Shown one piece after another: positions 28,286 through 45,562 of a DNA stretch of 64,000 bases; within the stretch, counting starts at the first letter, position 1, and each line of letters begins with the position of its first letter. A program made the position numbers and the translations under genes. The stretch comes from Acidobacteriota bacterium (lineage in GTDB: Bacteria; Acidobacteriota; Blastocatellia; Pyrinomonadales; Pyrinomonadaceae): the NCBI GenBank assembly GCA_019242475.1, contig JAFAVK010000078.1:18809-82808 (forward strand), in the 5' to 3' direction. The notes under the pieces are model-generated. The model was given only the letters and a program-made list of their open reading frames with translations, made no database searches and was not told the DNA's origin.

Positions 28286-29437
28286 TCAGGCTTTGAACTC
28301 TTCCGAGGCGACCGTGTAACGCTCGACCTTCTCGCGCGAGACGGCGAAGCCGTTGCCCGCGCCTGCGGCTATGTGTATGTAGCCCTCTCCGTCGATTGTG
28401 ATCGCGGGCTCGATTAAGTCGTCCGCGTACCAGCGCGCGGACGCCTCGATGTCGGTCGGGTATTCGAAGCCTTCGAGCGCGGCGAAGTGGAGCCCCTGCG
28501 CGGAGGCGACGCCGAGTTCCGGCATCGTGCCGACCCAGCAGCCGAGCCCCGCCGCGCGGGCGCGCCCCCGCATCAGACGTGCCTCGCTCAAACCTCCGAC
28601 GCGCTGCACCTTGATGTTGATGATGCGCGCAGACCCCAGCGCGATGATCTCTTCGAGCGCGCCGGGGGATTCGGCCGACTCGTCCGCGCAGAGCGGCGTG
28701 CGCAGCCGTCTTTGCAACTCGGCCGCCTCGGCGTGCGCCTCGCGCGCGAGCGGCTGCTCGATCATCAGCAGGCCGTGCGCGTCGAGTTCGCGGAAGACCT
28801 CCGCGTCCGCGAGCGTGTAGGCGGCGTTCGCGTCAACCGTCAAAGGCACGGCGGGGAAGCGCGCGCGCACGGCCGCGACCGGCTCCAAATCCCAACCCGG
28901 CTGAATCTTGATCTTCACGCGCCGGTACCCTTCGGACACGTAGCGCCCGGCGCGCTCCAGAAGCTCCCCGACCGTGTCGTAGATGCCCAGCGCGACGCCC
29001 GAGGGCACGGGCCGCGCCCGCCCGCCGAGCAGCTCGCACAAAGGCGCGCCTAAAGTTCGCGCGTGCGCGTCCCACAAAGCGCCTTCGAGACCGGCCTTCG
29101 CGAACGGCTCGCCGGGCACGCCGCGGAGCGCCAGGTAAACCTGCGCCGCGTCTATCTCCCCCACGCCGAGTGCGAGCGGGACGAAGGTCTCGCGTAGCGC
29201 ACGCCACGCACCGTCGGGCGTGTCCGCCGAGTAGAAGGAGCCGGACATCGGCGACGCCTCGCCCCAGCCCTCGACGCCGTCCGACGTTCTGACCTCGACG
29301 AGCACGGCCTCCTTCTCCGCGACCGAGCCGCTGCTGATGCGGAAGGGTTCGAGCAGCGGCACGCGCACGCGGTGCAGCGCGACGCTCTCGATTCTTAAAC
29401 CGGTTCGTTCCACCTTTGCAGTCACAACTCTTCCCAA
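28286..29437 (-). CDS. Enolase-superfamily enzyme, OSBS / N-acyl(succinyl)amino-acid racemase subgroup
   Basis: All MR/MLE catalytic positions are recognisable: KxK (RVKIKIQPGWD), metal ligands (TVDANAAY, MIEQPL, LCADES) and the second catalytic Lys (INIKVQRVGG). The KIKIxPGWD motif resembles Amycolatopsis NSAR/OSBS (memory). Confidence 0.85.
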   Translation of the reverse strand: MGRVVTAKVERTGLRIESVALHRVRVPLLEPFRISSGSVAEKEAVLVEVRTSDGVEGWGEASPMSGSFYSADTPDGAWRALRETFVPLALGVGEIDAAQVYLALRGVPGEPFAKAGLEGALWDAHARTLGAPLCELLGGRARPVPSGVALGIYDTVGELLERAGRYVSEGYRRVKIKIQPGWDLEPVAAVRARFPAVPLTVDANAAYTLADAEVFRELDAHGLLMIEQPLAREAHAEAAELQRRLRTPLCADESAESPGALEEIIALGSARIINIKVQRVGGLSEARLMRGRARAAGLGCWVGTMPELGVASAQGLHFAALEGFEYPTDIEASARWYADDLIEPAITIDGEGYIHIAAGAGNGFAVSREKVERYTVASEEFKA

Positions 29438-29471: not shown

Positions 29472-30485
29472 TCATGTCATCCTCGCCAGCATCTCGCGCG
29501 TGACGCGGTTGCGCAGCGGCTCGTCGCGGAAGAAGCGCGCGACCTCTTCGACCGCCTCGGCCCCCATCGCCGCGCGCACCTCGACGCCGCCCGCGGCGAC
29601 GTGCGGCGTCAGGTAGACGTTCGGGAGCCGCCGCAGCTCGTGGTCGGCGGGCAGCGGCTCCAGAGGGTCTGTCACGTCGAGCGCCGCCGTGATTCGACCC
29701 GCGCGCAGCTCCGCGAGCAGCGCCTCCGTCTCGAACAGCCCGCCGCGCGCGACGTTGACGAGGTACGCGCCGTCGGGGATGAGCGCGAGCCGTCGCGCGT
29801 CGAGCAGGCCGCGCGTCTCGGGCGTGAGCGCCGCCGCGAGCACGACGACCGAGCAGGAGCCGAGCAGCTCGTCCAGCGCGGAGAGGCGCGCGCCGTGCTC
29901 GGCCACGGACTCCGGCGCGCAGAAGGGGTCGGAGACTAAAAGCTCGACGCCGAGCGGCGCGACCATGCGCGCGTAGGCGCGCCCGATGCGGCCGAAGCCG
30001 ACGAGCCCGACCCTCCGCCCGCGCACCGACTCGCCGACGCTCGCGTACTCGTTCGTCAAAGTCTTTCCCGCGCGCATCTCTTCGGCATACTGCGGGATTC
30101 GCCGCACGAGCATGAGCGTCATCGCGAGCGCCATCTCGGCCACGCCCCGGGCCATCGGCTCCGGCGCGTTCGCCACCGCGACGCGCTCGAAGACGGCCTC
30201 CTCCATCCGCGCCTTCAGCTCGCCGCCGCAGTGCGCGATGAGCCTCACGGCCGAGCCGTCGCCGAACATGTCGGCGCGCAGGAACGGCGAGTGCCACGTC
30301 GTCAAAAGGGCGTCAGACCGCGCGATCTCTTTACGCAACTCCGGCGTGTCTTCGCGCCCGCCGAAGCGCGCCCACTCTCCGACCTCTCCGAGCCGCGCGC
30401 GCACCCGTTCGGGGAAGAAGTGCGGGAAGAGCGCGTCGCTCGCCAGCACGAGGACGCGCGGCCTCTCAGCTTTACCTTCGCTCAT
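29472..30485 (-). CDS. D-isomer-specific 2-hydroxyacid dehydrogenase family protein
   Basis: Start taken at MSEGKAERPRVLVL... (ATG 30485, in frame with ORF end 30590). NAD motif GLVGFGRIGRAYARM...VSDP. Its ATG overlaps the upstream stop as ATGA (30485..30482). Confidence 0.85.
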   Translation of the reverse strand: MSEGKAERPRVLVLASDALFPHFFPERVRARLGEVGEWARFGGREDTPELRKEIARSDALLTTWHSPFLRADMFGDGSAVRLIAHCGGELKARMEEAVFERVAVANAPEPMARGVAEMALAMTLMLVRRIPQYAEEMRAGKTLTNEYASVGESVRGRRVGLVGFGRIGRAYARMVAPLGVELLVSDPFCAPESVAEHGARLSALDELLGSCSVVVLAAALTPETRGLLDARRLALIPDGAYLVNVARGGLFETEALLAELRAGRITAALDVTDPLEPLPADHELRRLPNVYLTPHVAAGGVEVRAAMGAEAVEEVARFFRDEPLRNRVTREMLARMT

Positions 30486-31318
30486 GCGCCGGCCCCCACG
30501 TCCTTTCGTAGTAGCCTCCCCGCGGCCCGCGCGAAGTCGGGCAGCGCGACCTCGGGCTCTTCGATCTCGGGGTGCCAGAACTTCTCCCACTCGAAGCTGA
30601 CGAACCCTTCGTAGCCGACGGCGCGCAGCGCGTCGAACGCGGGGCCGAACGGGACGAGGCCGCGCCCCGCGAGCACGGGCAGCCAGTGCTCGCGCCCCTC
30701 GACGGGCCGCGCGTCGCGCAGGTGCACGTGCGCGAGGTGTGGCGCGAGCGCGAGCGCAGCCTCTTCGACCGAGCTTCCGGCGGCAAACGAATTCGCCACG
30801 TCCCAGATGACCGCGACGCCCGTGTGTTCGGCGAGCCGGACGATCTCGACGGTCTCGTGCGCCGCCGCGAAGTCGCCGTGCGTCTCAAGCCCGACGCGGA
30901 CGCCCGCGGGCGCGCGCTCCGCCACGGCGCGGAGAGATTCCGCGATAAGCACGCGCGTCGCTTCGCGCGTCGCGCCTTCCTGAATCTTGTCGGGGAAGAC
31001 TCGAATCAGCGGCGAGCCGAGCGCGGCGGCCAGCTCGCAGTGGCGTAGTGCGACCTCGACCTGCCGTTGTCGTTCTCCCTCGTCTGTGTCGTGAAAGACG
31101 CAGGACGTATCCACGCAGCAGACCGAAAGCCCCTGCCCTTCGAGCCGTCGGCGCGTGCCTTCGACTGCCGCGGGCGCGAACTCGGGGCGGGCGAGCAAGT
31201 CTAGCCCGCCGCCGAGCGCGCGCATCTCGACGCCCGTGAAGCCGTACTCGCGCGCCGCGCGCAAGACGTCTTCCAGCCCGTAGTCGGGGCAGCCGAGTGT
31301 CGAGAAGGCGAGCTTCAT
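30482..31318 (-). CDS. Sugar phosphate isomerase/epimerase (xylose-isomerase-like TIM barrel)
   Basis: 278 aa. MKLAFSTLGCPDYGLEDVLRAAREYGFTGVEMR..., with the conserved E/D/H/E metal-site pattern (GLETHGDF, VIWDVANS, HVHLRD, SFEWE). Confidence 0.85.
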   Translation of the reverse strand: MKLAFSTLGCPDYGLEDVLRAAREYGFTGVEMRALGGGLDLLARPEFAPAAVEGTRRRLEGQGLSVCCVDTSCVFHDTDEGERQRQVEVALRHCELAAALGSPLIRVFPDKIQEGATREATRVLIAESLRAVAERAPAGVRVGLETHGDFAAAHETVEIVRLAEHTGVAVIWDVANSFAAGSSVEEAALALAPHLAHVHLRDARPVEGREHWLPVLAGRGLVPFGPAFDALRAVGYEGFVSFEWEKFWHPEIEEPEVALPDFARAAGRLLRKDVGAGA

Positions 31319-31323
31319 CGTCG

Positions 31324-32637
31324 TCAGGGCGCGTACTCGTAAGCGCCGATGTCTATCAAACCGTCCGAGGGCCGTGCCTGCGCCGTGCCCGGGGCGAGCA
31401 GCGTGTGCATCGGCGGGACGAAGGCGGGCGGCCAGAGCGGGTTGATGAACGGGTGTCCCGCGGGGCTCGCGGGCGCGTTGTTGCCCGCGCCGATGAGCGC
31501 GCTCCCGACCGCGGGCCGCAGGTCGAGCGTCGAGAGGTTGACGAAGTTCGGGTTGGTGCCGAAGACCGTGTTCGTCCAGCCGGTCGGGATAAGCGCCGAG
31601 CCGGTCGGAATCCAGTTGTTCGTCCCCACGTCCACGCGCCCCGCGACCCAGCGCACGCGCGTCTCCAGAACGATCTTGTCAATCGGCTCGTTGCCCACGC
31701 GGTAGAAGACGTTGTTGTGGACTTCGAGGCTCTCGATGCCCTCGAAGATTTCGATGGCCGGGCTCACCTGACCCTGCCGGAGGATGAAGGTGTTGTTGAC
31801 GAAGCGGTAGCGCCCCTTCGTCTCGCCCGTGCCGTCGCTCCCGACGCGCGCCATGCGACTCCCTTGCGTCGAGATGTGCTGGAAGACGTTGCCGACCACG
31901 TCGGAGTCCTCGCGCTTGGTGTCGGTCGAGACGTTCTTGTTGCCGTGCGGGTCTGGGCCGATGAGTTCGATCTCGCCGTAGAAGCCGCCCGAGACCCAGT
32001 TGTAGTAAATCTCGTTGCGCTCGGCGCGGCTCTTGATGTTGTTGCCGCCGTTCTGGTCGTGCAGGTAGCAGTACTGCATGCGGAAGACCGAGCCGGGGTG
32101 CGCGAACTCGTCGGTCGCCATGTAGACGGCGTGCTCGCCCGTGCCGTTGCCGCAGTGGTAGACCTCGACGTACTCCATCGTCAGCGAGCCCGAGTCGGTG
32201 TCGGCGCCGAGGATGCCGTGGGCGGGGCAGTCGTGGACGACCGTGTCGCGCAGCGTGATGTCGTCGGCGTGATGGTAGATGCCGCGGAAGCTGCCGCCGG
32301 TCACGTCGAAGCCCTCGAAGACGTAGTGATCCGAGAGGCGAAACTCGACGGTGTTCGTCCCGCCCGAGATGACGGGCCGCAGGCCGTTGACGCGCAGGCC
32401 GCGGATCGTGATCTTGCTCGCGGCCGTGCCGGGTTTCGTGAAGATGAGGTCGCCGGGGTAGGTGGCGTTGCCGTCAACCTCCACGAGGTCGCCGGGCGCG
32501 AGCAGCGGCGCGACGTCCTGCAACTTCTTTAAGGTGCGCGTGGGGCCGACCTGGTACGTGGCGGCTCGCGCGCTGTCGTCGGAACCGGCGAGGGCGAAGC
32601 AGCCGGCGAGAAACAGGCAGGCGATAAAGTACCTCAT
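31324..32637 (-). CDS. Right-handed parallel beta-helix repeat protein, probable lipoprotein
   Basis: 437 aa. Lipobox-like LFLAGC in the signal peptide. ATYQVGPTRTLKKLQDVAPLLAPGDLVEVDG... then beta-helix turns (LRDTVVHD, VEVYHCGNG, YLHDQNGGNN, VVGNVF, FVNNTF, VHNNVF). Confidence 0.75.
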   Translation of the reverse strand: MRYFIACLFLAGCFALAGSDDSARAATYQVGPTRTLKKLQDVAPLLAPGDLVEVDGNATYPGDLIFTKPGTAASKITIRGLRVNGLRPVISGGTNTVEFRLSDHYVFEGFDVTGGSFRGIYHHADDITLRDTVVHDCPAHGILGADTDSGSLTMEYVEVYHCGNGTGEHAVYMATDEFAHPGSVFRMQYCYLHDQNGGNNIKSRAERNEIYYNWVSGGFYGEIELIGPDPHGNKNVSTDTKREDSDVVGNVFQHISTQGSRMARVGSDGTGETKGRYRFVNNTFILRQGQVSPAIEIFEGIESLEVHNNVFYRVGNEPIDKIVLETRVRWVAGRVDVGTNNWIPTGSALIPTGWTNTVFGTNPNFVNLSTLDLRPAVGSALIGAGNNAPASPAGHPFINPLWPPAFVPPMHTLLAPGTAQARPSDGLIDIGAYEYAP

Positions 32638-32672
32638 CTCTTATCCTCCCTTTCGTCTCGGGTCGGGCGTTT

Positions 32673-34514: not shown

Positions 34515-34566
34515 CCGACCCCCGCACGCGTTCATAAACTCGTCTTTAAAGTCTCGAAGCACCGCC

Positions 34567-36315
34567 TCACTCCCCCGCCGCGTCGCCCGCGGCGAGCGCG
34601 GGCTTGACCTCCCCGGCCGCGCCTTTCGTGCGCCCGGCGACGACGAAGAGGAGGCCGACGACAGTCGTCGCCGCGGCGTAGAGCGCGACCACCGTGCGGT
34701 CGCGCCCCGGCTCCGACGCCAAAAGCATGAGGAAGCACGCGAGCCCGATGCCCGTCGTCACGCGCCCGACGATGGCGAGCTGCCCGCGCCCCGAGATGCC
34801 CCGGCCGCTCAGCTCCTTCTCGGGGTCAATCGGCGTGTGCAGCTTCCTGAAGAAGCCCGCGACGCGCTCGGCGAACTCGCCCTTCGGCTCGTAGAGGAGG
34901 ACGGGCGTGAAGAAGGCGACGGTCGTCGTGATCGCCGGGACGCCGATCAGGTAGGTCTCGTTCAAACCCCAGCCCAGGTAGCTGTTGAGGTAGACGTTGA
35001 CGAAGAGCGAGGTCGCCGCGCCGACGACGTACGCGAAGAGCGCCGACCACCAGGGCCCGCGCCGCACGAGGAAGCCGTACAGCAGCGGGAGCCCGAGCGG
35101 TATCTGAAAGATCGATTCGAGTATGAAGAGGAGCGTGAAGATGCCCTTCGTCCCCTGCGCGAAGATGAGCGCCACGCCGATCATGAAGAGCCCGACGAGG
35201 AACGACGTGACGCGGCTCGCGTAGAGCATGTGCCGGTCGCTCGCCTCGGGCCGCATGTAGCCCTGGTACAAGTCCTTCGCGAAGATGCCCGTCACGACGT
35301 GGTTCGCCGCCGACAGCGAAGCCATCGATGACGCGAGCATCGCCGCCAGCAGCACGCCGACGAGGCCGGGCGGGAGCACGCGCAAGCCCATCGCGATGTA
35401 GGCGGCCTCGGCCGGCTTGTTCAGCCCGTTCGGCGTCGTGCCCAGAGCGGGCAGCGCCACGCGCGCGACGAGCGGCGGCGTGTAGAAGACGAGCGTGCCG
35501 ACGGTGAAGAGCACCATGCAGAGCAGCGCGATCTTGCGCGCGTCGCGCTCGGTCGGCGCGCAGAAGTAGCGCTGCGCGTTGGCGAAGTTGTTGTAGCCCG
35601 TGATCTGCGAGACGGTGTAGGCCAGAAGGAAGAGCCACCCGTACTCGCCCGCGAACGGGTTGAAGAACCCGGCGGGCGCCTTCTCGACGAAGCCGCTCAC
35701 GCCGCCCACGTCCGCGAGCGAGAGCACCGTCAGGACGCAGGCCACGGGGAAGAGGAACATGAACTGAAACATGTCCGTGAAGCAGACCGCCCAGTAACCG
35801 CCGAGCACGGTGTAAAGGAGAATGACGACGCCGCAGATGACTATGAGGTAAGGGACTGGGATGCCGAGCGCAATGGACATGAAGCTCGACAGGGCGAAGA
35901 GCCGAACGGAGGCGAACATGAGCTGGCTCGGCCCGGTCATCCAGGAGAAGGTCTTGTGCGTGCCGACCCCGAAGCGCTCGCGGATGTACTCGACGACCGT
36001 CGAGACGCGCGAGCGACGCCAGCGCTGGGCGTAGACGAGGTAGCCGAGCAGGAAGGCCGGCACGGCGAGCGACAGAAGGAAGGTGCCGATGATGCCCTGC
36101 TGGTAGGCGAAGCCCGCGCCGCCGGTGAACGTCCAGACCGAGAAGCCGGACATGAACGAGGCCATCCCGGCGACCCACCACTCGATGCGGTTCCCGCCCT
36201 TGAGGAAGTCCGTGCCCGCGCGCATGAAGCGCATGAAGTAGGCGCCGACGCCCGCCATCAGGCACAGGTAGCCGACGAGCACGACGTAGTCAATCGTCTG
36301 AACCGTGGAGCGCAT
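34567..36315 (-). CDS. Sodium:solute symporter (SSS) family transporter
   Basis: 582 aa with about 13-14 hydrophobic spans. N-terminal SSS pattern (DYVVLVGYLCLMAGVGAYFMRF...DFLKGGNRIEWWVAGMASFMSGFSVWTFTG). Confidence 0.9.
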   Translation of the reverse strand: MRSTVQTIDYVVLVGYLCLMAGVGAYFMRFMRAGTDFLKGGNRIEWWVAGMASFMSGFSVWTFTGGAGFAYQQGIIGTFLLSLAVPAFLLGYLVYAQRWRRSRVSTVVEYIRERFGVGTHKTFSWMTGPSQLMFASVRLFALSSFMSIALGIPVPYLIVICGVVILLYTVLGGYWAVCFTDMFQFMFLFPVACVLTVLSLADVGGVSGFVEKAPAGFFNPFAGEYGWLFLLAYTVSQITGYNNFANAQRYFCAPTERDARKIALLCMVLFTVGTLVFYTPPLVARVALPALGTTPNGLNKPAEAAYIAMGLRVLPPGLVGVLLAAMLASSMASLSAANHVVTGIFAKDLYQGYMRPEASDRHMLYASRVTSFLVGLFMIGVALIFAQGTKGIFTLLFILESIFQIPLGLPLLYGFLVRRGPWWSALFAYVVGAATSLFVNVYLNSYLGWGLNETYLIGVPAITTTVAFFTPVLLYEPKGEFAERVAGFFRKLHTPIDPEKELSGRGISGRGQLAIVGRVTTGIGLACFLMLLASEPGRDRTVVALYAAATTVVGLLFVVAGRTKGAAGEVKPALAAGDAAGE

Positions 36316-36350
36316 CAGTTACACCCTTCGGCCTCCCGCCGCCTTCCCTT

Positions 36351-37154
36351 TCAGCGCGACAGGAGCGCGGCCGAGTCGCGGTCGATGAAGAGGTGCGCGT
36401 CCGCGTGGCGGCGCAGGATGGAGGCCGGGCAAGAGGTCGCGACCGGCCCCTCGATTGTCGCCTTGATCGCCTCGCGCTTCGCCGGGCCGGGCACGATGGC
36501 GAAGAGCTTCGGCACCGACATGACGGTCGGCACCGTGAGCGAGAGGGCGTGGCGCGGCACGTCCTCGATTGAGGCGAACGCGCCGTCGTTGACCTGCTGG
36601 TTGCGACAGACCTCGTCCAGCTCGACGACCTTGACCGCGGCCGGGTCTTCGAAGTCGCAGAAGGGCGGGTCGATGAAGGCGAGGTGGCCGTTCTCGCCGA
36701 TGCCGAGAACGGCGAAGGCGGGTGGGTCTTCCGCGAGCAGGCGCGCGTAGCGCACGGCCTCCGCGTCGCCGTCCGCGGCCTCGCCGCGCAGGCCGTGGAA
36801 CTCGCCCATCGGGACTTTGCTCACCAGCCTGTCCACGAGGAAGCGGCGGAAGGACTGCGGCGCGCGCTCGTCCATGCCCAGATACTCGTCGAGGTGGAAG
36901 CCCTTGACGCGCGACCAGTCAACGCCTTCGGTCGCGGCGAGCACCGCGAGGAACTCGTTCTGCGAGGGCGCGGAGGCGAAGACGCCGACGGCGCGCCCGC
37001 GCTCATTAATCAGGCGGCGCAGCTCGGCGGCGACGGCCGCGGCGGCTGCCTCGCCCATCTTCTGACGCGACTCGTAGACGTAGACGTTCAACTCGCCCGC
37101 GCTGAACTGCTCGACCAGCCCTTCGCGCGCGGGTGTGGTTGCTCCTGTTTCCAT
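36351..37154 (-). CDS. nagB: Glucosamine/galactosamine-6-phosphate deaminase-isomerase family protein (NagB-like)
   Basis: 267 aa. FHLDEYLG and LGIGENGHLAFIDPP align with the E. coli NagB motifs F-N-MDEYVG and GVGNDGHIAFNEP. The C-terminal ALSLTVPTV...GPAKREAIKATIEG also matches. AAGGAG Shine-Dalgarno 5 nt before the ATG. Confidence 0.8.
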   Translation of the reverse strand: METGATTPAREGLVEQFSAGELNVYVYESRQKMGEAAAAAVAAELRRLINERGRAVGVFASAPSQNEFLAVLAATEGVDWSRVKGFHLDEYLGMDERAPQSFRRFLVDRLVSKVPMGEFHGLRGEAADGDAEAVRYARLLAEDPPAFAVLGIGENGHLAFIDPPFCDFEDPAAVKVVELDEVCRNQQVNDGAFASIEDVPRHALSLTVPTVMSVPKLFAIVPGPAKREAIKATIEGPVATSCPASILRRHADAHLFIDRDSAALLSR

Positions 37155-37199
37155 GTGTGCTCCTTACATTTAAAAAGACTCGGGGGAATGATTTCGCGT

Positions 37200-38054
37200 T
37201 CAGCCGACCTCGGGGCCGGCGATGGCAAAGACTTTGGCGGAGGTGCCGGCGCCAGTCCGCGCGCCGCGGCGCATGCGCACGAGGTCGCGCTGCTTCAGGA
37301 AGCCGCGCCCGGCCAACGTGCCCGCCAGAGATTCGAACCGCGTGGTCACGTCTATATAAAGAGGGCGCCCCGCGTGCCGCGCGAGGGCTTCGTCGAGCAA
37401 ACCCGACGCGGTCTCGAAGTCGGACGCCACCAGCGGGCCGACGTAGTCGGCGCGCGCGCCCGCGCGCGTCAGCGCATAACCCTTGACATGTCCGCCCGCT
37501 GTCCTGACGAAAGTCCCGGCCGCCTGTGCAAAGAGCAGCTCGACGAGCCGCGCGCGGTCGGCGCCGAAGGCGTCGCGGTCGAACTCTAAAATCTCCGCGA
37601 GCCCCGCGGAGTCTTGAGGCGAAGGGTTCGCGTCTTGCCCGCCGTCCGCGCCGCGCGCCCAGCGCTCAATCAACAGCTCGGCTTCAAACCCGAGCGCCTC
37701 GTAGACGTGCCGCCCGTCGGGCGTCGCGTCGAGCTTGACCGCCCGGACGCCCTCGCCGTCGAGGTACGCGAGCGCCGCGCGCATGAGGCGCGAGGCGATG
37801 CCGCGCCTGCGGAACTCGGGGTCAACGAGCACCATCCCGACCCACGCGAGTTCGCGCCCGTAAGTGGTCGTCGTCGCCGTCCCGACGAGGCGGCCGCCCG
37901 ACGCGGCGGCGAAGCACCCGCGCGGCTCAAGCCCGAGCAGCCGCCGCCAGTCCTCCTCGGTCTGGTTCCAGCCGGCCGCCTCCTTCAGCCTCATGGCCGC
38001 CGGGAGGTCTTCCGCGCCGAGCAGGCGAATCTCAACGTCGGCCGCTTTCGTCAT
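37200..38054 (-). CDS. GNAT-family N-acyltransferase with C-terminal YitH-like extension
   Basis: Start at MTKAADVEIRLLG... (ATG 38054). The ORF-track extension to 38558 overlaps the upstream gene in another frame. Acyl-CoA motif VLVDPEFRRRGIASRLMRAAL. About 130 extra C-terminal residues. Confidence 0.8.
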   Translation of the reverse strand: MTKAADVEIRLLGAEDLPAAMRLKEAAGWNQTEEDWRRLLGLEPRGCFAAASGGRLVGTATTTTYGRELAWVGMVLVDPEFRRRGIASRLMRAALAYLDGEGVRAVKLDATPDGRHVYEALGFEAELLIERWARGADGGQDANPSPQDSAGLAEILEFDRDAFGADRARLVELLFAQAAGTFVRTAGGHVKGYALTRAGARADYVGPLVASDFETASGLLDEALARHAGRPLYIDVTTRFESLAGTLAGRGFLKQRDLVRMRRGARTGAGTSAKVFAIAGPEVG

Positions 38055-38056
38055 CT

Positions 38057-39361
38057 TCACCTGGCGGGGAGCGCCGGCTCGCGCTCGCCGCGGACGCGGT
38101 TGGAGGGCTCGGCGCAGAAGTCGGCCATGCGCTTCACGTTCCAATCCTCGGGCCAGCCGAAGGCGCGGCGCAGGTGCAGCAGCCACGCGACGAGGCCCGC
38201 CTCCGGGTTGAAGTAAAGCTCGTGCAAAGCGCGCGCCGTCTTGCCCCCCGAGCGCATCGCGTACTCCCTGGACGGCAGTTGAAAGTAGGTGTGAATCTGG
38301 AACGTGGACGCGCCGCGCAGGAGGTACGCGGCGGCCGCGCGCCCCGAGGTGATGTTGCCCGTCGCGCTCAAGGGGGCGCGGCACGCCTTGACCTCGCCCG
38401 CCTGCTCCAGCGCGCGCAGCCGCGCGAGCACCGAGAGGTTGCGCGCGCTCAGGTCTGGCCCGCCGTAGGCGACGCCGCGCACGCCGCCGAACTCGCGCTC
38501 CGCGTCGAAGAGGCGGTTGGCGTAGACGTGGAAGTCCGGCGCCTCCTCGCCCGTGCACTCCTCGTTGACGGCCCGGAGCATCTCAAGCTGGAAGTCTTCG
38601 CCGAAGACCGCGTTGAAGAACTTGAGGCCGATGGAGACGGGGCGCGGCGCGGCGGCGCGGCGGATGAGCCCGGTCACCTGCGTGAGCCAGCGGATGATCG
38701 TCTGCGACTCGGCGGCGCGGTCGGAGCCGGCGAGCGTGGGGCTGAAGTCCTTCTCGATGGGCATCGGCTCGCGGCCGGGCCAGGACTTCTCCCACACGTC
38801 GAGGAGGCGGCGCGTCGTGTACTCGTACTCGCCCGTCTTCCAGCCGGCCTCGCCGGGGCGCGGCAGGTGGTACTTGCACGAGGGGACGACCGGCATGCGC
38901 GCCGCGACCCCGGCCCCGACCGCCTCGCCGAAGAACTCCAGGTACTTCTCGAAGGTGTCGTACCAGCCGCGCCCCTTCCACGTCACCGTCCACCCCTGCG
39001 TCCCGTCCGAGCCCTTGATGCGCTCGACGAGCATGCGCGTCTCGTGGACGGCCCACTCGCTCATGGACTGCCCGCCGCGCTCGTCCTCGGCGATGATGGT
39101 CTTCAAGACCGCGAAGCCGAGGCCGTCCTCGGCGTCGCGCCGCACCTGGCCCGTGTTGAGCGAGAGCTGCCCCGACGCCTTGCCGAAGGGGTTCTTGACG
39201 GCGAGGCCGCCGTACTCGCTTGAGAGATCGAGGCGGTAACTGTCGCGCACGTACTCTTCGAGCCGCGCGGGCAGCCCCTCGCGGAAGCGCTCGTAGTCGG
39301 CCGCGAGCGCCGCGCTCTCGCGTGCGTCCAGGTTCAAACTATCCAGGACGTGTGAGGTCAT
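38057..39361 (-). CDS. Dihydroorotate/dihydropyrimidine-dehydrogenase-like FMN TIM-barrel protein (function unknown)
   Basis: Start at MTSHVLDSLNL... (ATG 39361). N-terminal substrate-loop-like GGLAVKNPFGKASGQLS and C-terminal FMN-phosphate-site-like TGNITSGRAAAAYLLRGASTFQIHT. At 434 aa it is clearly longer than a class-1 PyrD. Confidence 0.6.
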   Translation of the reverse strand: MTSHVLDSLNLDARESAALAADYERFREGLPARLEEYVRDSYRLDLSSEYGGLAVKNPFGKASGQLSLNTGQVRRDAEDGLGFAVLKTIIAEDERGGQSMSEWAVHETRMLVERIKGSDGTQGWTVTWKGRGWYDTFEKYLEFFGEAVGAGVAARMPVVPSCKYHLPRPGEAGWKTGEYEYTTRRLLDVWEKSWPGREPMPIEKDFSPTLAGSDRAAESQTIIRWLTQVTGLIRRAAAPRPVSIGLKFFNAVFGEDFQLEMLRAVNEECTGEEAPDFHVYANRLFDAEREFGGVRGVAYGGPDLSARNLSVLARLRALEQAGEVKACRAPLSATGNITSGRAAAAYLLRGASTFQIHTYFQLPSREYAMRSGGKTARALHELYFNPEAGLVAWLLHLRRAFGWPEDWNVKRMADFCAEPSNRVRGEREPALPAR

Positions 39362-39368
39362 AAAACTC

Positions 39369-40343
39369 CTACCTTGCCCTCGCCCCCGCGAGGGCTTCGA
39401 GCGTGCGCCCGATCTCTTCGAACTCGCCCTCTCCAAGCCCCGGCCCCCAGGGGTCGTGCGCCGCCTCCGAAGGGAGGACGCCGAGGTGCGCGAGCGCCCA
39501 GAGCACACGGCGGATGTAGCCCTCCAACGGACGGACGAAGAAGCATTCGGCCAGCGCGTCCACCTCCGCCGAGAGTCGCAGGAAGCGCGCGGCGTCGCCC
39601 TCCGCGTGCGCGCGTATGAGGCCGGCCTGTAGCTCGCAGCAGACCGCGCCCATCCCGATGAGGGCGGAGCGCGCCCCGCGCATGAGGCTGTAACCTAAGA
39701 AGCGATCCTCGCCCGTGATGAGCAGCTTTTCCGGGTGGCGCGCGGCGAGCCGGCGCGAAACGTCCTGAAAGGTCATCACGCTGTCGAGCGTCGCCATCTT
39801 GATGCCGACGACCTCCGGCATCGAGAGCAGCTCGTCGAGCACCGACGGTTCGTAGCTGATGCCGCCCGCCTCCTCGTACAGGTAGAAGAGGATTAAGGGC
39901 AGGCCGACCGAGGCGAGCCGCCTGTGATGTTCGACGATCAGCTCGCCGCGCCGCTCTTGCCCGCGCAGCCAGACGGGCGCGTAGGCGAGCAGCGCGTCGG
40001 CGCCGAGCGAGGCGGCGCGCTCGGCCATCTCGACGGCGTCGGCCGTGGCGCGCGCGGGGTCGTCTGTGCGCCGCGAGCCGGCGCCCGCGGCGACGACTCC
40101 GCGGGGAAGCGCCGCGCGCCAGTCCGCGAGAACGCGGTCGGCCGTCTCGCGTTCGAGCAAGAGCCCGCGCCCCGTGTGCGCCCAGACGGCGACGCCCGCG
40201 ACGGGCTGCGCGGCCATGTAGCGCAGGTACGACTCGTGCCCGCCCGCGTGGAGCCGGCCGTCCTCGCCGAGCGGCACGGGCACGGCCGCGACGAGCCCGC
40301 CGTCGAGCCGCGCGCGCAGTCTCTCTGTCGCCTCTTGGTTCAT
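39369..40343 (-). CDS. DapA / N-acetylneuraminate-lyase family class I aldolase-like protein
   Basis: 324 aa. Schiff-base lysine context VVGIKMATLD (compare DapA IVGIKEAT). The N-terminal GTTGE motif is degenerate here (AHTGRG). Confidence 0.75.
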   Translation of the reverse strand: MNQEATERLRARLDGGLVAAVPVPLGEDGRLHAGGHESYLRYMAAQPVAGVAVWAHTGRGLLLERETADRVLADWRAALPRGVVAAGAGSRRTDDPARATADAVEMAERAASLGADALLAYAPVWLRGQERRGELIVEHHRRLASVGLPLILFYLYEEAGGISYEPSVLDELLSMPEVVGIKMATLDSVMTFQDVSRRLAARHPEKLLITGEDRFLGYSLMRGARSALIGMGAVCCELQAGLIRAHAEGDAARFLRLSAEVDALAECFFVRPLEGYIRRVLWALAHLGVLPSEAAHDPWGPGLGEGEFEEIGRTLEALAGARAR

Positions 40344-40346
40344 CGC

Positions 40347-41585
40347 TCAGCCGACGTACGGGACGGAAAGCAGGTTGTTGAGGACGAGCGTGAGCGCGCC
40401 CTTCAGGCTCGGCCGCACGTCGAACGACGAGCGGCGGATGGCGACGGGCTGCTCGCGCGGGGCGAGCACGCTCTTCGCCGTCTCGGCCCGGATGAGCGGC
40501 TCGACCAGGCCCCACGCCCTCGTGATCTCGCCGCCGACGACCACCACGTCCGGGTCGAGCCCGTTGATGAGGCCCGTGATGCCGATGCCGAGGTAGCGCG
40601 CCGTCTCGGAGACGGCCTCGGTCGCCGCCGGGTCGCCCGACTCGACCAGCTCGACGAGCTTGCGCATCGAGGGCGCGCGGCGGCCCTGCGCGCCGCGGAG
40701 CTGCTGGTAGCGGGCCACCGTCGCCTTGTCCGAGGCGTACAAGTCCCAGCAGCCGCGCTGGCCGCAGCGGCACTCGGGGCCGTTGAGGTCGATCATGACG
40801 TGGCCGAACTGGCCGGCGACGTTGTTGCCGCCGCGGTAGAGCGCGCCGTCGATGACGACGCCGCAGGCGAGGCCCGCGCTGACGCCGACGTAAAGCAGGT
40901 TGCGCGCCTGCGCGAGCGCCTTGCCGTGCCAGATCTCGGCGAGTGCGGCGCAGCGCGCGGAGTTGTCGATGGTGACGGGCAGGCCCGAGGACTCCTCCAG
41001 CCACTCGACGACGGGGACTTCGCGCCAGGGGAGGACGACCGAGGCGAGGAAGCGTCCCGCCTGGCTGTTGACGGGGCCGGGGAGGCTGACGCCCACGCCG
41101 GCCGCGTCGATGAACTCGGCGTGCTCCTCGCGCAGGCGCTTGACCTCGCGCCCGATCTCGCCGAGGAAGGAGCGCGCGTCCGCGCCCGTCTCGAAGCTGC
41201 GGCGGGCGACGATGCGGCTGTTGAAGTCGGCGAGCGCGAGGATGGTCTCGTCGGCGCGCACGTCGAGCCCGAAGAGGCCGTGGCGCAGCGGGTTGAGCCG
41301 GAGCGGGGTCGGGGGCTTGCCGCCGATGGGGGTGGTGCGCCCCCCGCCGTCGTCTTCAATCAGGTAGCGGTCGCGCAGAAGCTCGCCCGTGATCATCGAG
41401 ACGGTCGCCTTGTTGAGCCCGCTCACCTTCGCCAGCTCGGCGCGAGAGATCGGCTGGCGGTCGGAGAGGATGCTCAGCAGGATGCGACTGTTGACGAGCC
41501 GCAGCGTGTCGTGGCCGGCCGCGCGCACCGAGTCCAGGTTCGGCTTGCGCGACATGCCGCCGCGGGTTGAGACGGACTTCGACAT
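40347..41585 (-). CDS. ROK-family transcriptional regulator (second copy)
   Basis: Start taken at MSKSVSTRGG... (ATG 41585). HTH region (VNSRILLSILSDRQPISRAELAKVSGLNKATVSMITGEL). ROK signature (VGVSAGLACGVVIDGALYRGGNNVAGQFGHV) and Zn motif CRCGQRGCWD. Confidence 0.9.
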   Translation of the reverse strand: MSKSVSTRGGMSRKPNLDSVRAAGHDTLRLVNSRILLSILSDRQPISRAELAKVSGLNKATVSMITGELLRDRYLIEDDGGGRTTPIGGKPPTPLRLNPLRHGLFGLDVRADETILALADFNSRIVARRSFETGADARSFLGEIGREVKRLREEHAEFIDAAGVGVSLPGPVNSQAGRFLASVVLPWREVPVVEWLEESSGLPVTIDNSARCAALAEIWHGKALAQARNLLYVGVSAGLACGVVIDGALYRGGNNVAGQFGHVMIDLNGPECRCGQRGCWDLYASDKATVARYQQLRGAQGRRAPSMRKLVELVESGDPAATEAVSETARYLGIGITGLINGLDPDVVVVGGEITRAWGLVEPLIRAETAKSVLAPREQPVAIRRSSFDVRPSLKGALTLVLNNLLSVPYVG

Positions 41586-41640
41586 CTTTACTACTCGCCT
41601 TCCCTTCCTTGTTGGTTGCGCAAGTGTAGCGGCACGGGCC

Positions 41641-41684
41641 AAAGGAAAGGAAGGCAGAGGGGCGCGGCCGTGGCCCCTCTTGCC
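41641..41684 (-). terminator. Intrinsic-terminator-like hairpin plus U-rich tract after the second receptor gene
   Basis: On the minus strand: GGCAAGAGGGGC-cacggccgc-GCCCCTCTGCC (plus-strand 41653..41684, 11 bp with one bulged T). It is followed by UUCCUUUCCUUU (plus-strand 41641..41652). It starts 23 nt after the stop codon at 41708..41710. Confidence 0.55.
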
Positions 41685-41707
41685 TTCCCCGTTGCCGCGA
41701 CGCCGCT

Positions 41708-44700
41708 TCAGAAGGTCAGGCGCAGCCGCAGGCGGATCGTCCGGCGGTCGTCAATGCCCTCGTCCGCGTAGCTCTTCCGGATGCGGCCGAAGTCCGGGTT
41801 GAACTCCACGCACGTCCCGCCGTCCTGCGCCGCGTCCGACTCGCAACTGATGTTGCGAATCGGCTGGAGGCGCCCGGCGCCGTCCACGCCGAGGAAGATC
41901 GTGCCGACGTTGGAGAAGTTGATGGCGTCGTCAACGTTCGTCGGCGAGTGCAGCGGGTGGTTGAAGGCGTTGTTGAGGTCGGCCCCGACCTCCAGCTTCA
42001 TCCCCTCCCTGATGCGGAAGCTCTTGCGCAGGCCGAGGCTCGCGCCCCAGGTGCCCGGGCCGGTCAGCGCGTTGCGGCGGACGAGGTTCGGGTCGTCGAG
42101 CAGGCCCGCGCCCATCGAGGGCGGCGCGAAGGCCGCCACGTTGAAGATGGCCCCGGCCGTCCCGCCGTAGGGGCTCGTGCCCGAGGCGAGGATGGGGCGG
42201 AACGAGGTGCTCGTGGCGAAGCCGCCGAGCGCGTCTATCGAGTCGCTGGCGACGTTGCCGGGGAAGACCGGGTCGCAGTTGCCGCAGAAGTAGAAGGGCG
42301 TGAAGCCCGTGCCGCTCTTGGCGAACATGTTCCAGGAGAGCTGCCAGCCGCCGAGCGTCTGGTCGAGCCACGGCGCGGCGTCGGTGCCGTACGCCCGCCC
42401 CTTGCCGAACGGCAGGTCAACCAGGCCGTAGGCGATGAAGCGGTGGCGCGAGACGAAGGCGTCGCGGCTGAAGTCGTTGCCGGGGTTGAACTGGTTGTAG
42501 ACCGTCCCGCCCAGCGACGAGTTGCCGGTGTCGAGGCCGCTGCCCTTCTGGTCGAGGAGCGTGTAGCTGACGTTGAAGGTGAAGCCGTTCGAGAAGCGGC
42601 GGTTGGCCTCGACCTGCAAGGCGTGCGAGCGCCCCGTCCCGATGTTGTCGTAGCTGAGCAGGAAGGTGCCCAGCTCGGGGAACGGCAGGCGCGCCCGGTC
42701 GGCGTCGGAGATGACGCAGTCGCCGTCGTTCGGCGAGCAGGGGTCGCCGGCGTCGTTGCGCGTGCCGAACGGCGTGTTGCTCGGCGGGAGCAGGTTCAGG
42801 TCGGAGCCGCCGATCAGCCCGTGCAGACGGCTGCCGAGGTAGGAGACGCGCAGGCCCGTCTTCCAGCCCACCTCGTGCTCGACGGTGACGTTGTACTGCT
42901 CGATGCGCGGCTGCTGGAGGTCGAAGGGGATCAGGTTAACCGACGGCACGGTGCTGGCCGCGTCGAGGCGGCCGCCGCTGAAGGGCGTCTGCCCCGCGGG
43001 CGTCAGGCCGCCCGGCCAGCCGCCGAGCGAGAAGCCGCCGGCGGTGCGCGCCCTGCGCCCCTGGTTGAAGGGCACGGAGGCGAGCGCGTCGCGGATGCCC
43101 TGCGCGGCCGAGGTCGGGAAGAAGAAGCCGTAGCCGCCGCGCAGGACGGTCTTGTCGGTCAGACGCCAGGCCAGGCCGAGGCGCGGCGCGAAGTTGTTCT
43201 TGTCGGCGTTGACGAGGCCGCGCGGGAGGCCCGCCTGCTCGGCCGTCACCACGCCGTAGTTGACCATCGCCGGGTCGATGAGCGGGATGACCGAGGCGTC
43301 CGGCACGACGAAGCGGCCGCGGCGCCCGTTCGCCCCGACGAAGGTCGGGTCGAAGTTGACGAGCAGGTTGTTCGCCTCGTTGAAGGGCGTGAGCAGCTCG
43401 TAGCGCAGGCCCAGGTTGAGCGTGACGCGCGGGTGGATGCGCCAGTCGTCCTGCACGAAGAGGCCGTGCTCCCAGTTCGAGGCGTCGAGGCCGGGCCGGA
43501 GCTGGTTCACGTAGAAGGCCGAGTTCGCCGGCTGGCCGAGGAGGAAGCGCCCGAACGGGTCGAGGTTGGTGCCCGTGTAGTCGATGCGCCCGCGCGGGTT
43601 GCCGCGGTTCGCCGTGAAGTCGTCCACGGCGCGGTTGCGCACCGAGTCGAAGCCGCCCTTGAAAGTGTGCTTGCCCTTCGACCAAGTCACCGTGTCGCCG
43701 AAGGTCATCAAGTCCTGGTTGAGCCGGCGGTCAACGCTCCGGCCGCCGTTGGTGAAGCGGGTGAAGTTCTGGATGCGCAACTCCGGCTGGCCGAAGGTGT
43801 CGAGCGGGACGGAGCCGATGACCGAGCCGACCGCGCTGATGTCCGCGTCGCTGAAGCCGATGGAGGTGTAGAACTGGCGCAGCGTAATCGGCGCGTGCGA
43901 GAAGACGTTTTGGCGGTTGAAGCCGCCGCGCAGCTCGTTGACGAGCGTCGGGCGGAAGACGCGCGTGTAGGAGAGCGAGAGGGTGTGGTTGGTCTGCTCG
44001 TTCTCGCGCAGCCCGAAGGCCGGGTAGGCCGTGCCGGCGACGGCGCCCGCGTCCCGGGGCCGGTTCTGGAAGTTGTAAACCGCGTAGAACTTGTCGTTCG
44101 GCGAGAAGTCCTGATCGACGCGCGCCGTCACGAGGTCGCGCGTCTCGCGCTGCGTCAGGTTCTGCGCGAAGTTGACGAGGCGGCCGAAGGAGTCGGTCGG
44201 CGCGTCGAGGCTCGACTTCGGGTAGTAGACGTTTATGAGCTTGGCGACCGTCGGGTTGATGAGGCGCTGCGGGATGTTGATGAAGCGGCGCGTGCTGCCG
44301 ACCAGGACGGTGTTGTTCGCCAGCTCCTGCGCCGTCAGCAGCGGCAGAATGTTCGCCGGGACGGCCGGCTTGCGCGCGTTGCTGATCTGCGAGAAGTCGC
44401 CGTTCAGGAGCCGCTGGCCGGGCAGCCCGCTCCTGGACGAGAAGCGGATGGGCGTCAGGTTCCAGCGGCGCTCGTAGGAGCCGAGGAAGAAGGTGTGCTT
44501 GGAGCCGGGGACGGGGCCGCCGATTGAGCCGCCCGTCTCGTTGAGGTTGAAGTAGGGCTTGGGAAAGTCCGGCGCCGCCGGGTTCGGCGTGAAGTTCGCC
44601 AGGTCAATCTTGTCGCCGATGCTCCAGGCCGCGAGCGCCGAGTTCTTGTTGTTGTAGAAGAGCGACCCGTGGTACTGGCTCGTGCCGCGCTTGGTCTCGA

Positions 44701-45397
44701 TGCGGATGTTGGCGATGCCGGCGTACTCGGCCGAGAAGTTGTTCGAGAGCACGGTCAGCTCGCCGATGGCCTCGAGCGACGGCTGGCTCGTGGTCGGCTC
44801 GCCGAAGATGCCGCCGTTCGAGCGCTGGCCGTCGAGCGAGAAGGAGGCGCCGTAGCTCTGCGCCCCGATGAACTTGAAGGCCGTGTCCTCGTTCCCCGAG
44901 GTGATGTTCGGGTTCAGGTAGAGGAAGCTGTAGATGTCGCGGCTGTCGCGCGGCAACTCGGTCAGTTGCTGGGTCGTCAGGTTCCCACTGATCGTCGGCG
45001 TCTCGGTCTGAATGATCCCGGCTTCGGCCGTCACGTCCACGGTAGTGGTCGCCTCGCCGACCTCGAGCCTGGCGTCGGCCCGCACCACGTCGCTGCCCGT
45101 CAGCACGGCACTGATGACGGTGGTCTTGAACCCCTGGGCGGTGACGGTCACGCGGTAATTGCCGTACTTGAGACCGGCCGCCTCGTAGTAGCCCTCCCCG
45201 TTGGTCTTAAGATCACGCGAAGTGTTAGTCGCCAGATCCGTCACCTGCACCGAGGCGTTCGAGATCACCGCGTCGCTGGGGTCGGTCACGGTGCCGCGGA
45301 TCGTTCCGAGGTTCGTACCTTGCGCGAGCGCCGCGACCGGCACGAAAACGAGGCACGCAGCCAACAGGATGGCTGACAAGACTCCGTTACTTCTCAT
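41708..45397 (-). CDS. Oar-like TonB-dependent receptor with N-terminal carboxypeptidase-regulatory-like domain (second copy)
   Basis: Start taken at MRSNGVLSAILLAACLVFVPVAALAQ (ATG 45397, AAGGAG 7 nt upstream). CarboxypepD_reg-like domain (GTIRGTVTDPSDAVISNASVQVTDLATNTSRDLKTNGEGYYEAAGLKYGNYRVTVTAQGFK), plug, and a long barrel ending ...RLRLRLTF. Confidence 0.9.
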   Translation of the reverse strand: MRSNGVLSAILLAACLVFVPVAALAQGTNLGTIRGTVTDPSDAVISNASVQVTDLATNTSRDLKTNGEGYYEAAGLKYGNYRVTVTAQGFKTTVISAVLTGSDVVRADARLEVGEATTTVDVTAEAGIIQTETPTISGNLTTQQLTELPRDSRDIYSFLYLNPNITSGNEDTAFKFIGAQSYGASFSLDGQRSNGGIFGEPTTSQPSLEAIGELTVLSNNFSAEYAGIANIRIETKRGTSQYHGSLFYNNKNSALAAWSIGDKIDLANFTPNPAAPDFPKPYFNLNETGGSIGGPVPGSKHTFFLGSYERRWNLTPIRFSSRSGLPGQRLLNGDFSQISNARKPAVPANILPLLTAQELANNTVLVGSTRRFINIPQRLINPTVAKLINVYYPKSSLDAPTDSFGRLVNFAQNLTQRETRDLVTARVDQDFSPNDKFYAVYNFQNRPRDAGAVAGTAYPAFGLRENEQTNHTLSLSYTRVFRPTLVNELRGGFNRQNVFSHAPITLRQFYTSIGFSDADISAVGSVIGSVPLDTFGQPELRIQNFTRFTNGGRSVDRRLNQDLMTFGDTVTWSKGKHTFKGGFDSVRNRAVDDFTANRGNPRGRIDYTGTNLDPFGRFLLGQPANSAFYVNQLRPGLDASNWEHGLFVQDDWRIHPRVTLNLGLRYELLTPFNEANNLLVNFDPTFVGANGRRGRFVVPDASVIPLIDPAMVNYGVVTAEQAGLPRGLVNADKNNFAPRLGLAWRLTDKTVLRGGYGFFFPTSAAQGIRDALASVPFNQGRRARTAGGFSLGGWPGGLTPAGQTPFSGGRLDAASTVPSVNLIPFDLQQPRIEQYNVTVEHEVGWKTGLRVSYLGSRLHGLIGGSDLNLLPPSNTPFGTRNDAGDPCSPNDGDCVISDADRARLPFPELGTFLLSYDNIGTGRSHALQVEANRRFSNGFTFNVSYTLLDQKGSGLDTGNSSLGGTVYNQFNPGNDFSRDAFVSRHRFIAYGLVDLPFGKGRAYGTDAAPWLDQTLGGWQLSWNMFAKSGTGFTPFYFCGNCDPVFPGNVASDSIDALGGFATSTSFRPILASGTSPYGGTAGAIFNVAAFAPPSMGAGLLDDPNLVRRNALTGPGTWGASLGLRKSFRIREGMKLEVGADLNNAFNHPLHSPTNVDDAINFSNVGTIFLGVDGAGRLQPIRNISCESDAAQDGGTCVEFNPDFGRIRKSYADEGIDDRRTIRLRLRLTF

Positions 45398-45460
45398 TAA
45401 TAGACTCCTTGCCATGAGGGAAGTTTCATCCGAGATCGGCGGACGGCCGCGCGGCCCGGC

Positions 45461-45481: not shown

Positions 45482-45562
45482 CGGGGCAAAACCTTGAACT
45501 ATGTTGGACGCTTTACGCGAGTCGGGGAGCGACTTGCAGCAGACTTAACCCTGCGAAGCGTG

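Follow-up and report, generated by a model that had tools for sequence, protein, structure and literature searches.

Which compound is taken apart by the genes at the centre of a 64,000-nucleotide stretch of a Pyrinomonadaceae genome (Acidobacteriota), and by what chemistry? The stretch, hereafter the window, covers positions 18,809 to 82,808 of contig JAFAVK010000078.1 (assembly GCA_019242475.1). At its centre lie genes for a ROK-family regulator, a lyase resembling dihydrodipicolinate synthase (DHDPS), a protein resembling dihydroorotate dehydrogenase (DHOD), a GNAT acyltransferase and a NagB-like protein, followed by a gene for a sodium:solute symporter (SSS). A first reading of the DNA (the original prediction) had seen in this set the hallmarks of sialic-acid or amino-sugar-acid catabolism. 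Here, we show that the cluster is real, conserved and uncharacterised; it is most likely not of the sialic type and would be a variant of amino-sugar-acid or D-amino-acid catabolic clusters. Its evolutionary core consists of the DHDPS-like gene, the DHOD-like gene and a gene for an enolase of the N-succinylamino-acid racemase (NSAR) type. We tentatively suggest, from sequence and gene context, that these genes form a cytoplasmic module for an N-acyl alpha-amino acid, which would probably be an N-acetyl amino-sugar acid; other readings together carry much of the weight, and they are taken up below. The genes on which the argument turns are the following.

40347..41585, minus strand: ROK-family transcriptional regulator with an N-terminal winged helix-turn-helix (HTH) and a ROK sugar-binding domain carrying the CxCGxxGC zinc motif
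39369..40343, minus strand: Schiff-base lyase of the DHDPS/NAL family, uncharacterised subfamily (PF00701, 6e-20)
38057..39361, minus strand: predicted FMN-type TIM-barrel protein of DHOD/DPD fold, 434 aa, from a narrow uncharacterised family
37200..38054, minus strand: two-domain GNAT N-acyltransferase (Acetyltransf_1, 5e-17; Acetyltransf_18, 3e-19)
36351..37154, minus strand: NagB-like deaminase/isomerase paralogue with altered phosphate-site residues (PF01182, 1e-15)
34567..36315, minus strand: sodium:solute symporter, inner-membrane importer (PF00474, 4e-36)
28286..29437, minus strand: enolase of the NSAR/OSBS subfamily (N-acylamino-acid racemase type)

The coordinates and the minus strand of the five-gene core and of the symporter gene were confirmed, and the five genes are as tightly packed as the original prediction had described: from ROK through DHDPS-like, DHOD-like, GNAT and NagB-like to SSS, the intergenic gaps measure 3, 7, 2, 45 and 35 nt. 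Pfam strongly supports five of these six families, the DHOD-like protein being the exception. In NCBIfam the core enzymes score far under the cut-offs of the dapA, nanA, nagB, pyrD and NagC models and are therefore uncharacterised paralogues, not those named enzymes. The host genome measures 6.1 Mb and is 91% complete; the G+C content of the window is about 69%.

The conserved core

Loci around DHOD-like homologues were taken from GTDB species representatives and assemblies and compared by tblastn with 16 window proteins; the presence counts given here cover loci with enough flank. Among the GTDB representatives there are 529 DHOD-like relatives. About 50 species-level genomes of Pyrinomonadaceae/Blastocatellia share the gene order, with 65–93% protein identity; the highest value belongs to a Pyrinomonadaceae metagenome-assembled genome. 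The five-gene arrangement is far beyond chance. In Blastocatellia-type loci, the DHOD-like gene is accompanied by the ROK gene in 37/37, the DHDPS-like gene in 37/37 and the GNAT gene in 41/44, so that the trio of DHOD-like, DHDPS-like and GNAT genes, whose conservation the original prediction had left to a neighbourhood comparison, does hold together there. The symporter (41/44) and NagB-like (37/44) genes recur as well, and so do a TonB-type receptor (31/33), a GH123-like protein (38/44), a beta-helix protein (24/29), an AP_endonuc_2 barrel (28/29), a 2-hydroxyacid dehydrogenase (28/29) and the NSAR-type enolase (26/29). The counted loci are species representatives yet phylogenetically related, and within-class counts overstate their independence; it is the cross-class and cross-phylum recurrences that are the independent observations.

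In Terriglobia-type loci (54–60% identity) a compact cassette is found, made up of adjacent NSAR, DHDPS-like and DHOD-like genes with a gene for a major facilitator superfamily (MFS) transporter and, in some loci, GNAT. NSAR is present in all 14 loci and the DHDPS-like gene in 13, and the two genes often overlap by 4 nt. GNAT occurs in 5/14 and the NagB-like gene in 3/14; ROK and SSS are found in none of the 14, and the glycosidase, AP_endonuc_2 and dehydrogenase genes are gone. An MFS transporter, present in 16 loci, replaces the symporter. It is of the OFA/MCT (monocarboxylate) type, nearest to carriers of L-lactate, oxalate/formate and conjugated bile salts, and this kinship indicates a small carboxylate as the substrate. 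A DppA-type D-aminopeptidase (Peptidase_M55) lies about 3–5 kb upstream of the cassette in L067, L068, L071 and L077; an M28 peptidase is near the cassette in three Terriglobia loci, and four others have an IlvD/EDD gene of the L-arabinonate-dehydratase-like kind there.

Outside the Acidobacteria, the NSAR, DHDPS-like and DHOD-like trio stands in a complete 3.4-Mb genome (L005; GCA_003691585.1, CP033169.1, 5773-16294). There it is followed by genes for an Nramp-type carrier, an HTH protein and the beta and alpha subunits of an L-serine dehydratase and, further on, by an M20 N-acyl-amino-acid amidohydrolase and a glyoxylate-reductase-like 2-hydroxyacid dehydrogenase; this variant may be the most informative one for guessing the substrate. 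In another locus (L004) the DHOD-like protein is accompanied by two NSAR paralogues, a solute-binding protein, a GFO/IDH/MocA oxidoreductase and a 2-hydroxyacid dehydrogenase, and on a further contig (P0126) NSAR comes immediately after the DHOD-like gene. Across Acidobacteria classes and other lineages, no gene stays with the DHOD-like and DHDPS-like genes as constantly as NSAR. The evolutionary core is therefore NSAR, DHDPS-like and DHOD-like; ROK, NagB-like and SSS were added in particular lineages, and so, in part, was GNAT. The five genes of the original prediction are a real group; the enolase 7 kb downstream in the same array had not been linked to them there.

The enzymes of the core

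By its sequence, the window enolase is a member of the NSAR/OSBS subfamily. It matches the Amycolatopsis NSAR at 1e-78 and scores 239.8 bits with TIGR01928, over the cut-off of 200.65; the catalytic set KxK (KIK), D, E, D, K is visible in its translation. The motif KVQRVGG provides a basic residue equivalent to Arg266, which is kept in all DHOD-like-linked homologues, and this position has been tied to racemase activity by the Glasner laboratory (bioRxiv 10.1101/2022.03.03.481873). A second OSBS/NSAR gene is held elsewhere in the host genome, as are other Glucosamine_iso genes. Among solved structures, the GNAT protein is best matched by the uncharacterised 3ddd (5e-9). The presence of an NSAR changes its likely role: it need not re-acylate an amino sugar and may instead supply the N-acyl compound on which an NSAR depends.

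The DHDPS-like lyase retains Lys182, Tyr154 and Thr57, the first two of which align to YagE and DapA. Its Schiff-base lysine stands in the context VVGIKMAT, and the carboxylate-binding GTTGE motif, which the original prediction rightly called degenerate, is replaced by AHTGRG. In the family alignment AHTGRG is invariant, together with YLYEAAGG, TGEDRFLGYS, PMEGYIRR and DPWGP. The protein falls under the dapA, nanA and KdgD model cut-offs (dapA, TIGR00674: 49.7 bits vs 206). Its model (pLDDT 91) has a complete DHDPS/NAL fold, and neither sequence nor fold singles out a relative: the sequence profile against the PDB gives YagE, DapA, NAL and HOGA tied at 1e-13 to 1e-15, and the fold comparison ties YagE, NAL, HOGA and DapA at Z 34.3 to 33, with YagE first (Z 34.3, 290 residues aligned, root-mean-square deviation (rmsd) 2.2). 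The likeness to the characterised aldolases of the family (YagE, a 2-keto-3-deoxygluconate (KDG) aldolase; NanA; HOGA1; DapA) is thus close, with rmsd 2.0–2.4 over 285–297 residues. The lyase differs from them in having AHTGRG for GxTGE, in invariant motifs of its own and in being equidistant from all characterised subfamilies. A homologue search returned only generic names and no subfamily assignment. More than 4000 proteins of this family are labelled dihydrodipicolinate synthase or 4-hydroxy-tetrahydrodipicolinate synthase in public annotation; because its members fall far under the dapA cut-off and are without GTTGE, these labels are a systematic mis-annotation.

For the DHOD-like protein the assignment comes from the predicted fold, not from sequence. 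With PF01180 the protein scores 20 bits, under the gathering score of 27, and the match is confined to its first 50 residues. Its AlphaFold model, built with 28 sequences, has a pLDDT of 92.4. The fold search that the original prediction had proposed placed it closest to the FMN domain of pig dihydropyrimidine dehydrogenase (DPD; Foldseek 2e-13; Z 27.3, 328 residues aligned, rmsd 3.4) and next to DHOD of class 1B, class 2 and class 1A (Z 24–25; for DHOD B, Z 25.1 with 297/309 residues aligned). Other FMN barrels reach at most Z 20, the next family being OYE at Z 20.1. The model therefore points to an FMN TIM barrel of the DHOD/DPD type. Two FMN-contacting lysine positions are kept in the family, as are the phosphate-site motifs GG(P/L)xLS and (S/G)xTG(N/G)I and a Ser/Cys-Pro loop, and the fold match extends over 297–328 residues at Z 24–27. 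The protein differs from DHOD and DPD in its low identity (<18%, under the Pfam cut-off), in its catabolic rather than pyrimidine gene neighbours and in its length: as the original prediction had noticed, it is about 120 residues longer than class-1 PyrD, and the model assigns the excess to an N-terminal helical extension and two beta-hairpin inserts.

The DHOD-like family is narrow, with 298 clusters in 1.8 billion 50%-identity representatives, and nearly all of its more than 3000 close homologues are named 'hypothetical'. Its conserved motifs are GKASGQLS, VLKT, DF(S/C)P, GLK247, ANRLFD, GGPDLS and SATGNIxSG; in the DF(S/C)P loop some members have Ser and others Cys, the two residues between which the catalytic base also varies from one DHOD class to another. 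A predicted complex of the DHDPS-like and DHOD-like proteins with FMN gave ipSAE values of 0.00, 0.49 and 0.00, with a median under the mark, and has no bearing on binding. The original prediction had expected the DHOD-like and GNAT steps to be without a described counterpart, and this is supported for a catabolic core that is conserved.

Could the two enzymes simply be the host's own DapA and PyrD? This housekeeping reading, under which the idea of a dedicated pathway would have fallen, was rejected. The host genome has a canonical dapA (317 bits, contig C127), a class-2 pyrD immediately upstream of pyrF and a second DHO_dh gene, all of them elsewhere; a PF01180 search of the genome recovered two other genes, and the DHOD-like gene was not among them.

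The wider locus and its possible substrate

How far does the unit extend? The five genes form the central part of a TonB-dependent utilisation locus that is much larger and of mixed glycan and peptide character, and the true unit exceeds the five genes drawn in the original prediction. About 24 co-directional minus-strand genes follow each other with short gaps between 10995 and 51837 of the window. The locus also has DUF4832 and DUF5107 genes, and the window a CocE/NonD S15 hydrolase gene; further members of the run are listed here.

50629-51837, minus strand: Amidohydro_2 protein
41708..45415, minus strand: outer-membrane receptor of the TonB-dependent type, heading the unit (OMP_b-brl_4, 3e-157, with CarboxypepD_reg)
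32673-34562, minus strand: GH123-like protein, exported glycan-active candidate (GH123_cat, 8e-7)
31324-32637, minus strand: beta-helix protein, exported glycan-active candidate (the Beta_helix match is faint and was found in the L001 homologue)
30482..31318, minus strand: xylose-isomerase-like TIM barrel (AP_endonuc_2; PF01261, 9e-38) of the keto-sugar/keto-acid isomerase, epimerase or lyase type
29472..30485, minus strand: oxidoreductase of the D-2-hydroxyacid dehydrogenase family (PF02826, 1e-50)
22459-24855, minus strand: heparinase II/III-like protein
14245-15504 and 21090-22442, minus strand: two Amidohydro_1 proteins resembling N-acyl-amino-acid hydrolases of the Cc2672/prolidase type
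19512-21062, minus strand: second beta-helix protein
10995-14237 and 15512-18397, minus strand: two BNR/sortilin-repeat proteins

The 2-hydroxyacid dehydrogenase at 29472-30485 falls under the cut-offs of the PGDH and glyoxylate-reductase models, and homologues of it also occur in L004 and L005. A second D-2-hydroxyacid dehydrogenase gene lies on the plus strand within the minus-strand array (18185-19450); as called, it appears to share about 200 nt with the final part of the 15512-18397 gene, and its start codon probably needs revision. No kinase was found in the gene array, and a scan of window positions 27500-46000 for promoters and terminators gave no signal above shuffled expectation.

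Two themes run through these contexts. An amino-acid or peptide theme is made up of NSAR, GNAT, the M20 amidohydrolase and serine dehydratase, DppA and M28, the CocE/NonD S15 hydrolase and the two Cc2672/prolidase-like amidohydrolases. The other theme is that of sugars or sugar acids: in the window, the NagC-like ROK protein, the NagB-like protein and the GH123-like, beta-helix, DUF4832, heparinase II/III-like and DUF5107 genes; beside DHOD-like homologues elsewhere, a lactonase, AP_endonuc_2, GFO/IDH/MocA, IlvD/EDD dehydratase, PfkB kinase and sugar ABC transporter; and for the lyase, YagE as the nominal top match. A 2-acylamino-2-deoxy-aldonic acid is a sugar acid and an N-acyl alpha-amino acid at once. 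Dihydroorotate is itself a cyclic N-acyl alpha-amino acid, and action of a DHOD-fold enzyme on an N-acyl amino acid or a six-membered lactone is therefore chemically reasonable.

In the pathway that we tentatively favour, exported glycosidases and peptidases would free a small carboxylate, an N-acyl alpha-amino acid and likeliest an N-acetyl-2-amino-2-deoxy sugar acid, which would be taken up via the receptor and the symporter (MFS in Terriglobia). A free-amine form, where present, would be re-acylated by the GNAT protein, and the alpha-carbon would be inverted or activated by NSAR. The DHOD-like enzyme might then carry out an FMN-dependent redox step between C-alpha and C-beta, and the resulting 2-oxo or 2-imino acid could be captured on Lys182 of the DHDPS-like lyase and cleaved to pyruvate and an aldehyde. 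The 2-hydroxyacid dehydrogenase, the AP_endonuc_2 barrel and the NagB-like protein would finish the products, with the unit regulated by ROK. This proposal may accommodate other orders of the steps and either direction of the flavin reaction. A sharper version seems improbable to us, though it would be the more far-reaching: the DHOD-fold protein would be an FMN-dependent alpha,beta-dehydrogenase of N-acyl amino acids (or of an N-acetyl-hexosaminate or its lactone), with the DHDPS-like lyase taking the enamide or 2-imino acid onto its lysine, which together with NSAR would amount to an undescribed removal of nitrogen from N-acylated amino (sugar) acids, independent of both pyridoxal phosphate (PLP) and a deacylase and widespread in soil Acidobacteria.

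Several observations weigh against the favoured pathway. The DHOD-like and DHDPS-like families are without a characterised member, and the N-acetyl amino-sugar acid is where the two context themes meet, which is less than a direct deduction. In the classical DHOD mechanism the deprotonated carbon must be flanked by a carbonyl, which a simple N-acetyl-hexosaminate does not have unless it reacts as its lactone, and hhalign against the host PyrD sets the DF(S/C)P loop 3 residues off the SSPN loop, leaving the position of the catalytic Ser/Cys ambiguous. A deacylase, a kinase and an aldehyde dehydrogenase are absent from the five-gene core, of the 14 Terriglobia-type loci 9 have no GNAT and 11 no NagB-like gene, and Planctomycete DHOD-like genes are without NSAR and DHDPS neighbours. 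Finally, the recurring DppA and M28 peptidases near the Terriglobia cassette favour ordinary D-amino acids.

This last point leads to the best-surviving alternative, which we consider somewhat less probable than the amino-sugar-acid pathway: salvage of D-amino acids or N-acyl amino acids from peptides (e.g. from peptidoglycan or necromass), with no sugar acid involved. GNAT and NSAR would turn a D-amino acid into its N-acylated L counterpart, as is known from Geobacillus kaustophilus, and the DHOD-like and DHDPS-like enzymes would degrade one skeleton, for instance an acylated 2-amino-6-oxopimelate or a 4-hydroxy amino acid, by something like a reversed DapA/DapB logic. The presence of both GNAT and NSAR speaks for it, as do the M20 amidohydrolase and L-serine dehydratase in L005, DppA in four Terriglobia loci and M28 in three, the hydrolases of N-acyl amino acid or dipeptide type in the window (the S15 hydrolase and the two amidohydrolases) and the resemblance of the MFS protein to monocarboxylate and conjugated-bile-salt transporters. 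However, the Blastocatellia locus is rich in glycan genes and has a NagC-like ROK and a NagB-like protein, a lactonase, GFO/IDH/MocA, IlvD/EDD and PfkB stand beside DHOD-like homologues elsewhere, and the window core is without an M20 deacylase. For simple D-amino acids, moreover, cheaper catabolic routes are known.

A substrate without nitrogen for the DHOD-like/DHDPS-like pair, be it a 2-oxo acid, a keto-sugar or a lactone, seems rather unlikely to us; NSAR and GNAT would then be a side branch that shares the regulon. An example would be an FMN-dependent desaturation or ene-reduction next to a carbonyl, followed by release of pyruvate by a hydratase-aldolase. Such a pair without NSAR does exist: on the P0136 contig (ENA ERZ27247977, 3879-7525) the DHDPS gene shares 14 nt with a DHOD-like gene of 39% identity, and pyruvate kinase comes next. 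In Planctomycetota, also without NSAR, an SMP-30/gluconolactonase-like (SGL) gene follows the DHOD-like gene in L083 (9935-12296) and L087 (9818-12413), and in L081 and L085 a divergent AP_endonuc_2 gene, 35–36% identical to that of the window, lies beside it; hydratase-aldolases and KDG aldolases are known in the DHDPS family, and YagE is the top match. Set against this are the translational coupling of NSAR to the DHDPS-like gene by a 4-nt overlap in Terriglobia, where NSAR is present in 14/14 loci, and its place directly after the DHOD-like gene on the P0126 contig.

The sialic or nonulosonic variant, a NanA-type lyase, ROK, NagB and SiaT-type symporter with extra flavin and re-acylation steps, is very improbable, even though a DHDPS/NAL-fold lyase with a Schiff-base lysine, a NagB-like protein, ROK and SSS do share one array and GNAT could conceivably re-acetylate a de-N-acetylated nonulosonate. 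The nanA model TIGR00683 gives 33 bits against a cut-off of 382, with no match over the cut-off genome-wide, and no match to NanE (PF04131) was found in the 91%-complete genome. The ROK protein (Pfam ROK 1.5e-56) has MarR_2/IclR HTH matches at residues 34-83, which mark it as a regulator and not a NanK kinase; it scores 97–99 bits with NanK models (cut-offs 283–450) and 145 bits with the NagC model (cut-off 650). The symporter, described as SiaT type in the original prediction, is no closer to SiaT (5nv9; 3.6e-20) than to human SGLT1 (2.1e-20) and looks generic. The Terriglobia module persists without ROK and SSS and mostly without the NagB-like gene. Lastly, an NSAR works on an N-acylated carbon that bears a proton alpha to the carboxylate, and nonulosonic acids have no such carbon. 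Of the pathway for a nonulosonic or other amino-sugar acid proposed in the original prediction, the nonulosonic part is not supported and the other amino-sugar acid is the part we retain.

The NagB-like protein matches B. subtilis NagB at 1e-26 and keeps LDEY and GENGHLAF, the catalytic Asp and His motifs, and it scores 110 bits with the nagB model TIGR00502 (cut-off 236.9). Because SAPSQ stands in place of the TGxTP phosphate loop, and Gly takes the Arg172 position in every module-linked homologue, it may not act on a 6-phosphate. Another gene of the Glucosamine_iso family (78.9 bits; contig C125, 86237-86908) lies about 3.4 kb past the right end of the window, downstream of a plus-strand sugar-activation locus.

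Few groups of soil bacteria are as abundant as the Acidobacteria, and only a minority of the carbon and nitrogen sources they use have been identified. The module is present in hundreds of species-level genomes. Solving it would give a function to the DHOD-like and DHDPS-like families, correct the systematic mis-annotation and take DHOD-type flavin chemistry past pyrimidines, and would probably show by what route oligotrophic soil bacteria regain carbon and nitrogen from the N-acylated amino acids or amino-sugar acids of necromass or oxidised chitin-like polymers.

Relation to known systems

Literature searches on this enzyme combination found nothing, and the comparison is with systems that share parts of it. 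The operon of G. kaustophilus for converting D- to L-amino acids resembles the window in having GNAT and an NSAR/OSBS enolase with the Arg266-equivalent in one gene array, and its M20 amidohydrolase has a counterpart beside the core trio in L005. In contrast to that operon, no M20 gene is among the window genes examined, leaving the set of GNAT, NSAR and M20 incomplete, and the G. kaustophilus pathway has no role for the DHOD-fold and DHDPS-family enzymes that are the constant partners of the window NSAR. A related route that acylates, racemises and deacylates is that of DgcN/DgcA (PMC12363236).

By analogy, the closest known system appears to be the ong (GlcNAc1A) cluster of Pseudoalteromonas prydzensis, in which oxidised chito-oligosaccharides enter via TonB receptors and GlcNAc1A via an SSS transporter, to be processed by enzymes derived from D-amino-acid metabolism (PMC9537276). 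Its deacetylase OngB evolved from D-aminoacylases (PMC12017989). The two window Amidohydro_1 genes have Cc2672 and molinate hydrolase as their best solved relatives, with PpOngB at 1e-7 over about 110 N-terminal residues. Both systems have TonB-dependent receptor(s), a periplasmic glycosidase (a candidate in the window) and an SSS-family inner-membrane importer, and the cytoplasmic enzymes of ong treat an amino-sugar acid as an N-acetyl-D-amino acid, ending at a 2-keto-3-deoxy acid. They part ways in the cytoplasm: ong relies on OngB, the PLP-dependent D-amino-acid deaminase OngC, RidA and KdgK, none of which was seen in the core of the window module, where no search was directed at OngC, whereas the window module has in their place NSAR, GNAT, a putative DHOD-fold flavoenzyme, a DHDPS-family lyase and a NagB-like protein.

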